NCBI GenBank assembly: GCA_964354805.1
Contig: CAYHBD010000016.1
Span: 32,001 to 96,000, forward strand
Direction: 5' to 3'
Origin: an uncultured archaeon
GTDB taxonomy: Archaea > Iainarchaeota > Iainarchaeia > Iainarchaeales > GCA-2688035
Length of the DNA: 64,000 bases
The notes under the pieces were generated by a model. The model was not told where the DNA came from, ran no database searches, and saw only the letters and a list, made by a program, of their open reading frames with translations. Position numbers and translations under genes: made by a program. Within the stretch, counting starts at the first letter, position 1. Each line of letters opens with the position of its first letter. This document shows, in pieces, positions 8,773 through 63,535 of this stretch.

Positions 8773-8812
8773 AAAGCCTTTTTTGCTGTTGCAAAAAAGC
8801 CTTGGGAAAAAA
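8773..8812 (+). repeat. Family-1 palindromic repeat unit (intergenic)
   Basis: AAAGCC-TTTTTTGC-TGTT-GCAAAAAA-GCC-TTGGGAAAA. Confidence 0.85.
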
Positions 8813-8813
8813 G

Positions 8814-8848
8814 CAGCGGAAGCCCGCTCTTCCAGCAGCTTTTTAAAT
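8814..8848 (+). promoter_or_regulatory. CAGCGGAAGC box plus TATA upstream of nurA
   Basis: CAGCGGAAGCCCGCTCTTCC followed by TTTTTAAAT; similar boxes upstream of rad50 and the dead PolB. Confidence 0.5.
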
Positions 8849-8873
8849 GCCCTGAGCACCTTATTTTACTGCC

Positions 8874-9971
8874 ATGCACTTGCACCAGGTGATTAGCGAA
8901 GCAGTCAGCAACATTGCTGCAATGGACAGGAAGAGAAGGCAGCTTGCATCCCAGCTGCTGCCGCTGTGCAATCAAGACCTGCTTAAACTAAATAATAATG
9001 AATTGCTTGAAAAAAAACTTATTTCACCAGTGGACAAAGCTGAATTGAATTGCAGCATTGCTGGCGTTGACTCCGGTTTTATTGGAAAGGATTTGCTTGC
9101 ATTAGACCTTATCCTGATCAGGACAGTTGGAGCGGTGTTTGATTACAAAAAGGGCAAGGTTGCAAAAGCCCAGTATTTTCCGAACGCTTACGCTTTTCCA
9201 GAACCACATTTGAGCAGCGCAGGCCTTGAGTTTGACGAATTCCAGTGCAGCAAAAGCATACAGCGCCTGATGCAGGAAGTGGATACAGCAAAAGAACTAA
9301 TTGAAAGATTCAAGCCAAAATACTGCTTTTTAGATGGAAGCATTGTCCCGCAGTACGCTGACAAGCCCAGAAAGGACAGCAAAATAAAGAGTGCTTACCA
9401 TGAAATGCTGCGGCAATTCCAATCGCTTTACGAAACAGCCGAAAAAAATAATTGTGAATTGGTTGCATGCGTTGAAGACAGCAGGGGCTCGCGCTTCAGG
9501 CAGATAATGCAGCAACACCTGCTTGCAGAACAAAAGGGAATGGCTGAACAACTTGAAAGCTGCTATGATGCAATCCTTTTGGATTACCTGCTCAAAAAGG
9601 GTGAGAGAAGCAGCGCGTTCGCTTACACCACTGATGTGAAAGAGCACCCCATTCTGATGGATTTTGATGAAAAGTGGGCAAAGGCAGTCAGGGCTTTCTA
9701 CATCAAGCCGGCAGCATTTGACAGGCCATTGAGGGTTGAGTTCCTGCACCCGAACGGAGAAAGCATTTCAACGCATGCAGATGCGATTGCATCCCTTGTT
9801 TTTGCGCAGAGCAGCATGCACAGGGAATACGCTTTTCCGGCAATTCTGATTGAAGCCGATTTGCATGCAAGGCTGACTCCGCAAGAGATTGAGGTTGTTT
9901 TCGACAAAATTTTAAACAAATTGGGGCGAGGATTTAAGTTAAGGATGAGGCGCGACAACAGGCCGTTTTAG
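8874..9971 (+). CDS. nurA: DNA double-strand break repair nuclease NurA
   Basis: IAGVDSG and FLDGS catalytic segments, YAFPAILIEADLHA; adjacent to herA. Confidence 0.9.
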   Translation: MHLHQVISEAVSNIAAMDRKRRQLASQLLPLCNQDLLKLNNNELLEKKLISPVDKAELNCSIAGVDSGFIGKDLLALDLILIRTVGAVFDYKKGKVAKAQYFPNAYAFPEPHLSSAGLEFDEFQCSKSIQRLMQEVDTAKELIERFKPKYCFLDGSIVPQYADKPRKDSKIKSAYHEMLRQFQSLYETAEKNNCELVACVEDSRGSRFRQIMQQHLLAEQKGMAEQLESCYDAILLDYLLKKGERSSAFAYTTDVKEHPILMDFDEKWAKAVRAFYIKPAAFDRPLRVEFLHPNGESISTHADAIASLVFAQSSMHREYAFPAILIEADLHARLTPQEIEVVFDKILNKLGRGFKLRMRRDNRPF

Positions 9972-10024
9972 GTGAAAGGAATAAAAGGGAAAAAAATTAT
10001 AACAAAGCATTTTGAGGCGAGAGA

Positions 10025-10207
10025 ATGAAAGAAAAAGAATTATTGGTTTGCCCCCAGTGCGGTTCAACTGATTTGCACTGGCTGCTTGGCGGTCAAACAG
10101 GCGACCAATACAAGTGCCCCAACTGCAATTACCAGGGCATTGCATTGAAGGGAAACATTAGGTTCATTAAGAAACTGCAAAAGAAGGGAACTGATTTGAA
10201 TGGCTGA
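10025..10207 (+). CDS. Small Zn-ribbon protein
   Basis: CPQCGS...YKCPNCNY; overlaps the herA start. Confidence 0.8.
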   Translation: MKEKELLVCPQCGSTDLHWLLGGQTGDQYKCPNCNYQGIALKGNIRFIKKLQKKGTDLNG

Positions 10208-62470: not shown

Positions 62471-62520
62471 TTTTCAACCTATTTAAGCGGAACTGTCTTG
62501 CCTGCAATAGTTTTTTTAAT
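62471..62520 (+). pseudogene. Echo of the methylthiotransferase 3' end
   Basis: FSTYLSGTVL encoded twice with four synonymous differences. Confidence 0.85.
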
Positions 62521-62551
62521 ATTCTTTACTAAGTAATATTAATTCAGAAAG

Positions 62552-62580
62552 TAAACTTTTGGAAAAAGTTTAACCAAAAA
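62552..62580 (+). repeat. Family-2 short hairpin repeat
   Basis: AAACTTTT-GGA-AAAAGTTT-AACCAAAAA. Confidence 0.7.
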
Positions 62581-62600
62581 GCTTTACCTGGGGTGTTTCA

Positions 62601-63359
62601 TTGCTTTTCGTCAATGTTTTGGAGCAGTATAAGGCGAATGCAAAAACCTTGCTGGTGTTTGCCCTATTGCTGGTTTTTGTCCTTGCTTTTGTGGCAGTGC
62701 AGCCTGTTTTTTTCAGCAGCGGCAGCGTTTTTCTGGACTACAATCTTGCGACAGCCGACTTATGGCAACTGCTTCCAGCCGCAGCATTTATTGCCCTGTT
62801 TTTGGCTTTTTACTCTTTTTTTATTTCAATCATTTTGTTCAGTGTCAGAAACAGCCTGAGCAGGCTGAGGCAGCATTACTACCTGCATGAAATGATGCAG
62901 CGCTTTACGCTGAAAATTTTTATTTTTTATTTGTTATTCTGTTTTCTGCTGTTTCTGCTTGTCACTGGCTTGCTTTTCTTGGGCGTTCAGATTGAATTAA
63001 TCAATGTCATTGTTCTTCTGGTTTCAGTTGCCCTGCTTTTTGTCCCGCAGGCAATTGTTGTTGACGAGGAAGGCTTGCGCTATGCGATTTCTAGCAATTT
63101 TGATTTCATTGCAAAAAACAAAGGCGCTGTGCTGACTGTGCTCATTGTCGGCTGCGTAATGCTTGCAGCCCTGCAATTGGTTGAGTTTGCAATAGACCAA
63201 ATTGCATTAATCGGCTCGCTTGTTTCCCTTTTCATTGCACTTGTATTCATTCTGCCGTTCATTGAAATAATGAAAACATACTTTTACATGATGCGCTTTG
63301 AGCTGATAAAGGGCCATGAGGTTGCGAGGAGGAAAAAGCCGCATCCAGCGAGGCATTAG
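62601..63359 (+). CDS. Hypothetical multi-pass membrane protein
   Basis: About six TM helices. Confidence 0.8.
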   Translation: MLFVNVLEQYKANAKTLLVFALLLVFVLAFVAVQPVFFSSGSVFLDYNLATADLWQLLPAAAFIALFLAFYSFFISIILFSVRNSLSRLRQHYYLHEMMQRFTLKIFIFYLLFCFLLFLLVTGLLFLGVQIELINVIVLLVSVALLFVPQAIVVDEEGLRYAISSNFDFIAKNKGAVLTVLIVGCVMLAALQLVEFAIDQIALIGSLVSLFIALVFILPFIEIMKTYFYMMRFELIKGHEVARRKKPHPARH

Positions 63360-63472
63360 TTGCTAACAAAGCCACTTTAAAAATCTTTCTTTAACTTCCC
63401 TTATTTTTTAATTACCAAACCGTTTTTTTCAGAAAACAAACTTTTAAATAAACTTTTTTTCAGATTATTAAT

Positions 63473-63535
63473 AAGCCTTTTTCACTTCCGTGAAAAAGCC
63501 TTGGGAAAAAGGGCAATTGCTTCGCAATTGCAAAG
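63473..63535 (+). repeat. Family-1 repeat unit
   Basis: AAGCC-TTTTTCAC-TTCC-GTGAAAAA-GCCTTGGGAAAAAGG-GCAATTGC-TTC-GCAATTGC. Confidence 0.88.

Follow-up and report, generated by a model that had tools for sequence, protein, structure and literature searches.

A 64,000-nt stretch of the genome of an uncultured archaeon (the window, positions 32001 to 96000 of contig C16 in G000, a 1.38-Mb, 49-contig metagenome-assembled genome, or MAG, of the Iainarchaeota/Diapherotrites) carries copies of a hairpin-bearing repeat unit of 45 to 60 nt that also lies between genes, within protein-coding frames, and in tRNA introns elsewhere in the same genome. These copies form a real, young, lineage-specific repeat family of one Iainarchaeota family, and the unit has demonstrably been copied to new places, stacks head to tail, and accepts further hairpin modules in its linkers. 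We put slightly better than even the chance that the unit is selfish DNA that multiplies by template switching guided by homology, with no dedicated transposase, a mechanism that we infer. The main new result is a homology rule, drawn from few events at insertion junctions and in tRNA genes, according to which the target would already resemble the element's 5' end.

All 12 units at 10 loci described in an earlier, sequence-only reading of the window are present, all on the + strand (Table 1), and each of those loci carries the same parts in the same order: AAGCC, a T-run, an inner stem of 2 to 4 bp with a loop of 3 to 4 nt, an A-run, GCC-TT, GGG plus a second A-run, and a second small hairpin. 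The T and A arms of hairpin 1 are 4 to 7 nt long at these loci, its outer stem has the form NNGCC/GCCN'N', and an 8-nt spacer leads to the purine tract before a mini-hairpin closes the unit. That reading had missed two variants, at 21476 to 21519 (+) and 45677 to 45724 (-), and the three copies inside coding genes as such. Its proposal that the inner stem changes sequence while keeping its pairing holds on copies selected with no pairing requirement, which average 2.27 consecutive pairs versus 0.86 +/- 0.11 when partners are shuffled among copies (maximum of 1,000 shuffles, 1.27). The outermost two pairs covary as well (AA/TT 76, CA/TG 9, TG/CA 5), and a C.C mismatch forms the second pair of the outer stem in 75 of the 104 copies of a stricter catalogue, which places those 104 units of the genome at 83 loci.

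Folded as single-stranded DNA (ssDNA), units give z scores of -2 to -6, and the reverse strand, opposite to the orientation used here, is the better fold in all three units tested both ways. Loops of GAA or GNRA type number 61 on the reverse strand versus 3 on the forward strand, and the common second hairpin reads on the reverse strand as a GAA-looped mini-hairpin. In tRNA introns it is the other strand that is transcribed, not the one that loops and ssDNA folding favor. In Rfam, only tRNA passes the gathering score, and nothing meaningful appears at E <= 5 over window positions 30700 to 34100.

Genome-wide counts come from a structural-pattern search, which replaced a covariance model; the MAFFT alignment of nine window units was not structure-aware. 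The pattern has 81 matches in the source genome versus 0 for its reverse. Independently of the pattern, the core 12-mer with at most two mismatches gives 34 hits versus 18.4 +/- 4.5 in shuffled sequence, a total reached by 0 of 100 shuffles. Among genomes of the same family, 13 of 18 carry the pattern, with 0 to 132 copies per genome, and four congeners hold 2, 3, 13, and 132. The closest sequences to the window's ELP3 gene belong to MAGs named Candidatus Iainarchaeum or Diapherotrites, with a best identity of 73%; the ELP3 neighborhoods of 17 relatives contain no copy, versus six units in 3.2 kb in the source genome. Because these neighborhoods are empty and the in-frame inserts described below are absent from orthologues, the family is mobile. 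The sequence-only reading was right to propose a dispersed, tandem-forming archaeal hairpin family with covarying stems, and mobility was one of the two options that it gave. Where units cluster, 15 of 16 clusters run head to tail.

The dated insertions lie inside protein genes. Both 15-aa inserts of ELP3, a Pfam-assigned protein, are absent from the solved archaeal Elp3 and from 16 aligned relatives, and a length comparison finds ELP3 about 30 aa shorter in 30 relatives. The 33-aa insert of a conserved 536-aa protein is likewise absent from seven relatives. The three in-frame copies of the window (45, 45, and 99 nt) are recent insertions, missing from every relative searched. Four more inserts were dated elsewhere in the genome, in Dus (54 nt), IleRS (54 nt), a Fic protein (108 nt), and, antisense, a DHH protein (90 nt). 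All seven are stop-free multiples of 3, any given frame being open in 75 to 90% of units, and the Lys-Pro-Phe phase is used by six of seven sense copies inside open reading frames (ORFs), a set that differs from the seven dated inserts. Antisense insertions within coding sequence are two, the DHH case and one in a 958-aa ORF. A screen for frame-breaking copies, taken as units whose two flanking ORFs, each 100 aa or longer, differ in frame, turned up no such case, the matches being gene ends, such as that of a complete FtsZ, or ORFs with no Pfam assignment. The host ORF at C8:1165-2655 had no homologue in 12 relatives, so its insert is undated.

Are such inserts translated or removed from the transcript? 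One account would make the unit a mobile bulge-helix-bulge (BHB) intron, with transcribed copies, including those in ELP3, excised and the AAGCC-starting intron RNA copied back into DNA. Most long tRNA introns do have the unit beginning at their first base, and for ELP3 site 2 one can draw a perfect central helix of 4 bp with two 3-nt bulges that would excise exactly 45 nt. However, when registers were drawn by hand from the sequence within insert limits set by the relatives, no protein-restoring register gave such a drawing for ELP3 site 1 or the 536-aa protein, leaving one of the three window inserts drawable. Even site 2 lacks flanking helices, and its 13 allowed registers make one 4-bp match unsurprising. 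The seven verified copies keep frame, which splicing would not need, two insertions within coding sequence are antisense, and the tails specific to tRNA introns are missing from dispersed copies; in tRNAs the BHB belongs to the whole intron and not to the unit. We consider a mobile intron very improbable. Translation of the inserts, as for the palindromic elements of Rickettsia, appears the better reading.

Junctions point to how the copies arrived. At the empty site of the 536-aa protein all relatives encode Cys-Cys-(Lys/Arg)-Pro, and the DNA of three contains AAGCC (TGCTGC-AAGCC). In Dus, the relatives encode Lys-Lys-Pro at the empty site, the closest with AAGCC. The 12-mer (Gln-Pro-Phe-Ala) found on either side of the ELP3 site 2 insert in the source genome occurs in nearly identical form at the empty site of the closest relative. 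In three of seven dated insertions, then, the target already matched the unit's first 5 to 12 bases ([A/C]AGCC). Flanking direct repeats measure 12, 4 to 7, 7, 7, or up to about 20 nt, or none is clear.

The same bases recur in tRNA genes. At least 12 copies fall within tRNA introns, and of 15 such introns at position 37/38, at least 10 have the unit beginning at their first base. Mature positions 38 to 40 read AGC, matching the unit head R-A-G-C-Y, in 9 of 14 tRNAs with an intron-start copy versus 1 of 30 others (Fisher 2.5e-5).

These data fit a model in which a nascent strand, during replication or repair, would use a short homology to jump onto a unit or array already in place, returning where the next unit begins. 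Most often the shared sequence would be the element's first bases, [A/C/G]AGCC followed by T's, and the hairpin or a triplex-prone fold probably stalls forks and so promotes switching, a speculative step. Such switching would explain direct repeats of variable length, the Lys-Pro or Gln-Pro codons that preexisted at insertion sites, head-to-tail arrays, and the use of position 37/38 in tRNA genes reading R-A-G-C-Y. Template switching fits better than a transposase because the flanking repeats vary, the arrays run head to tail, and inserts equal one array period. Copies would persist only where harmless: at or just after stop codons, as translated inserts of 15 to 36 aa, and in tRNA introns, where the hairpin would adjoin the 5' splice bulge and be cut out with the whole intron. 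A bolder extension, which we hold tentatively and think doubtful, is that the unit's first bases serve as a homology address that coincides with positions 37 to 41 of many tRNAs, giving repeated landing at the canonical intron site, with the hairpin as the helix beside the 5' splice bulge and no transposase involved.

Several observations weigh against template switching or the homology rule. The rule is clear at only three of the seven dated insertions: ELP3 site 1 shares only AAG (3 nt), the DHH site about 4 of 6 nt, the Fic insert is flanked by an unrelated repeat of 7 to about 20 nt, and the IleRS junction has no clear homology. Protein identity to the nearest relatives is only about 70%, so the ancestral junction DNA is inferred rather than observed. 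Behind intergenic copies, a partial repeat of the 5' end occurs at only about 6 of 83 loci. The partial tRNA set of a relative, G016, has AGC at positions 38 to 40 in 2 of 6 versus 2 of 21 tRNAs, the same trend and not significant, and the 3' tail that is specific to each tRNA and pairs with its anticodon loop would have to come from something other than a new insertion at 37/38. Perfect arms can arise by conversion within a palindrome, so stem covariation is no proof of selection on the fold. It is also possible that an enzyme from some other family acts in trans.

One candidate enzyme is an HUH (Y1) transposase of the IS200/IS605 insertion sequence (IS) or REP-associated tyrosine transposase (RAYT) type, REP denoting the repetitive extragenic palindromes of bacteria. 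It would move the unit in trans as a nonautonomous element, recognizing the imperfect hairpin and finding its target through pairing of the AAGCC flank with GCCTT beside the hairpin foot. The source genome does hold two TnpA-only, IS200-like Y1 genes (C35:614-967 and C13:1382-1729), the hairpin has a fixed irregularity, its left flank pairs and covaries with the bases beside the foot, and target sites read AAGCC. Orientation could be read the same way, as IS200/IS605 elements show an orientation bias with replication direction: in runs on C16, C8, C35, C42, and C30, 41 of 59 neighboring loci are co-oriented (P = 0.002). These runs are unrelated to gene strand or GC skew, and hand reading of G016, with 22 of 45 neighboring loci alike, did not reproduce them. 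Other evidence makes a Y1 enzyme a distinctly unlikely agent. Both Y1 genes bear their own G+C-rich terminal hairpins, unrelated to family units, and across 30 relatives the presence of Y1 genes shows no correlation with the number of copies. Genomes with 38, 22, 17, 15, and 11 copies showed no Y1 gene (G001 is the one with 38), and Y1-rich genomes have 0 to 3 copies (G004, 3 copies and seven Y1 genes). Flanking repeats exist here and vary in length, while IS200/IS605 and RAYT enzymes make none, and arrays run head to tail rather than as inverted REPIN pairs.

Other classes of mobile element were also set aside. The sequence-only reading had called the family REP-like and pointed to a RAYT or IS200-type gene flanked by units; neither suggestion is supported. 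The head reads [A/C/T]NGCC, its first two bases covarying with the bases after the hairpin, with no GTAG-type 5' motif. No Y1 gene is flanked by units, clusters are not the inverted pairs of REPINs or of bacterial interspersed mosaic elements (BIMEs), and copies are not extragenic only, given the verified inserts in coding sequence and those in tRNA introns. A miniature inverted-repeat transposable element (MITE) is contradicted by flanking repeats of no fixed length and by missing terminal inverted repeats, since the inverted repeat closes hairpin 1 only and the insert continues through the purine tract and hairpin 2. No match to TnpB (PF07282, Cas12f1-like_TNB) occurs in the source genome, and a TnpB/omega-RNA origin was rejected. 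A parent insertion sequence was not found among TnpB matches or the Y1 elements, whose ends differ; other transposase families were not searched.

A different view is that the unit is a functional structured RNA or DNA module kept by selection, its hairpin and mirror purine tract forming an intramolecular triple helix. Behind genes and tRNAs the cell would use it to mark 3' ends or terminate transcription, and in tRNA introns it would help folding or recognition. This view draws on a mirror symmetry. In all seven asymmetric C-interrupted copies of the genome, and in the window copy behind tRNA-Arg, the third tract mirrors the purine arm with 0 mismatches, versus 2 for a direct copy (8/8), and three of four such copies in G016 do likewise. 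The spacer stays at 8 nt in both subfamilies despite different sequence, and the retained C.C mismatch of the outer stem also speaks for a module. Against this, all informative mirror copies lie in or beside tRNA genes, and 79 plain T-run copies, among them most of the units described here, show no relation between third-tract and arm length (rho = 0.11, P = 0.35), plain A-runs being trivially compatible with a mirror. The covarying 5-bp outer stem bars a fold-back in the mirror register, so the two folds are mutually exclusive, and ssDNA folding of units yields hairpins only. Mirror symmetry is therefore real for the C-interrupted subfamily only, and a physical triplex is hypothetical.

Gene ends offer this structured-module account its other support. 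Behind a co-oriented gene, 9 of 30 intergenic copies begin -2 to +3 nt from the stop codon, including that of the complete FtsZ. In the window, the sequence-only reading had already noticed copies starting on a stop codon, and those at 30825 (TGA), 32971, and 33835 (both TAA) do so, with 61017 abutting a TAA. A run of five to seven T's right after a gene end matches the archaeal oligo-T termination signal. Nevertheless, copies between co-directional genes take both orientations (22 versus 15), and copies are not depleted between divergent gene pairs, which hold about as many (6) as convergent ones (7). Coding genes and tRNA introns contain the same T-runs, although a stop to transcription there would do harm, and by eye, with no count made, those of intergenic, intron, and coding copies show no obvious length difference. 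A terminator role was rejected on these grounds. With relatives also lacking copies at the same loci, we regard a selected module as improbable, and homology-guided template switching of a selfish repeat continues to be the account that we favor.

Table 1. Units of the repeat family in the window (positions in window coordinates; z, ssDNA folding score)
Position	Strand	Feature	z	Context
8774-8831	+	Unit with hairpin 1, GGG-A6 tract, and hairpin 2	-2.0 on +, -3.6 on -	Neighbors are a 209-aa ORF (end 8761) and the NurA gene (start 8874)
16241-16340	+	Composite unit, nested two-hairpin module in linker	-3.3	99-nt (33-aa) in-frame insert in conserved 536-aa ORF 15464-17074
21476-21519	+	Variant unit with ACAGC outer stem, C-interrupted arms, ATC linker, and mirror purine tract		Begins 2 nt past tRNA-Arg(TCG), 21398-21474
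30825-30916	+	TTTCTTT-subfamily unit, linker split by nested hairpin 30854-30905	-5.4	First A is last base of TGA stop of ORF 30043-30825; purine tract runs into promoter-like motif of ELP3
31124-31168	+	ELP3 site 1		45-nt (15-aa) in-frame insert near N terminus of ELP3 (30953-32638)
32318-32362	+	ELP3 site 2, same 12-mer on both flanks		45-nt (15-aa) in-frame insert in acetyltransferase part of ELP3
32971-33029	+	Unit; hairpin 2 has 8-bp stem and TTC loop	-3.4 on +, -4.1 on -	AA shared with TAA stop of ORF 32667-32972
33835-33927	+	Two head-to-tail units (33835-33883, 33884-33927); degenerate third start up to ~33953		Overlaps TAA stop of ORF 33480-33836 (Holliday-junction-resolvase-related)
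45677-45724	-	Variant unit with ACACC/GCTGT outer stem including C.C, TTTTCTTTT arms, 8-nt spacer, and matching purine tract		
46975-47033	+	Unit with compensated outer stem (TGGCC...CCCCA)		Antisense between minus-strand genes: stop of 47048-48031, N-terminal end of 46506-47066
61017-61124	+	Unit with nested hairpin ~61046-61100 in linker		Abuts TAA stop of ORF 60423-61016
61125-61192	+	Second array unit		Followed by partial repeat of element's first ~12 nt (~61179-61192)
63473-63531	+	Unit	-4.5 on +, -6.2 on -	Between ORF 62601-63359 and next + gene

The linker that joins hairpin 1 to the purine tract can host two kinds of nested module, each in multiple copies with compensatory changes. The first, represented at 30854 to 30905 and ~61046 to 61100 of the window, is 52 to 61 nt long, and 8 of its 10 genome copies occupy the same point (TTGG|G) of family units whose hairpins differ; either this module targets the TTGG|G site, or the composite spreads as a whole. 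Despite the nested module, the unit at 30825 has kept the match between its arms and the purine tract that comes next. The second module (window 16265 to 16322) consists of two A/T-run hairpins, and has six genome copies. On the element-sense strand a T.G wobble is retained in it, and C30 holds a compensated variant. Some units share a 3' extension of about 25 nt ending in the TATA-like TTATATG (C8:49842 in the Fic region, C43:19601, C35:43572), and in the Fic gene this extension would be translated as part of the 36-aa insert.

Other features of the same DNA were noted in passing. Upstream of several long genes, 39 to 45 nt before the start codon, a purine-rich motif is followed by AATAAA (window 30908 to 30935; C8:20598, C29:1515, C33:6376, and C46:11860 in the source genome), and it looks like a local promoter of B recognition element (BRE)/TATA type with very short leaders. 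In the TTTCTTT subfamily this promoter-like motif is fused to the unit's third tract, and a promoter may thus lie within or beside some of its copies. Synteny at ELP3 differs in the relatives, and comparison with them did not reveal an ancestral ELP3 promoter. A further short repeat, consisting of TTTTCGC and then a CAGCC...GGCTG hairpin, occurs at C7:10605-10851 and on C8, C35, and C47, and lies partly inside the 161-nt intron of tRNA-Ser(GGA). Beside nurA (8874 to 9971), an ORF for a HerA-type ATPase (DUF87; window 10200 to 12761, +) has a LAGLIDADG_3 match at aa 612 to 668, a segment that may be an intein or homing-endonuclease insert.

These findings bear on how archaeal tRNA introns originate and come to settle at position 37/38. 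Within a single small genome, one family connects young intergenic copies with in-frame inserts in conserved enzymes and with the base at which most long tRNA introns begin, and if the homology rule is true, it would offer a testable route for the gain and lengthening of archaeal tRNA introns and for new loops in conserved proteins. Because the rule is one of sequence, predicting likeness between the target and the element's 5' end, population data can put it to the test. The in-frame copies would also parallel, in an archaeon, what is described for Rickettsia, whose selfish palindromes have given essential proteins extra peptide loops.

A literature search, with most subscription journals outside its reach, returned no paper on such a repeat in these archaea, and comparison with known systems places the family beside several. 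Like REP, BIME, and REPIN sequences, it consists of dispersed imperfect palindromes (20 to 40 nt in those systems), often clustered and mostly behind genes; it differs in its head motif, in having no unit-flanked RAYT, in its head-to-tail arrays, and in not being extragenic only. In the Thermoproteales, Fujishima et al. (2010) reportedly found related introns among many tRNA genes and read them as gained by transposition. Related intron sequences across many tRNA genes of one archaeal lineage are common to both cases; theirs are confined to tRNA introns at varied positions, and ours are also intergenic and intragenic and use intron base 1 of the 37/38 site. The palindromic elements of Rickettsia are bacterial, about 100 to 150 bp long, and defined by a conserved encoded peptide (PMC10969869). 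As in that system, our copies are palindromic, in frame, and stop-free in unrelated conserved genes, absent from orthologues, apparently translated, and have no transposase of their own (PMC10969869). The likeness is not membership: ours are archaeal, 45 to 60 nt long, unrelated in sequence, and also found at tRNA intron starts and stop codons.

Among published repeats, the nearest in kind are the intrastrand triplex repeats of bacteria, represented by the G/C-rich BoxC, PIT, and TM_ECO repeats, with a triplex demonstrated in vitro (Holder et al. 2015, PMC4666352). Both are short and multicopy, with a pyrimidine tract, its hairpin partner, and a mirror third tract on one strand, and the authors of that work tied their repeats to local genome rearrangement and not to a transposase (PMC4666352). 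Set against that description, ours has A/T-rich tracts, resides in a DPANN archaeon, has a triplex that is only hypothetical, and shows the mirror only in its C-interrupted subfamily; it adds a covarying outer stem with C.C, a second mini-hairpin, and copies in tRNA introns and coding genes. What is new here is the homology rule at junctions and in tRNA genes, the negative RAYT test, and the limits placed on the triplex evidence. The family is not a REP/RAYT system, a MITE, or a BHB intron; it works like an in-frame palindromic element and an intrastrand triplex repeat.

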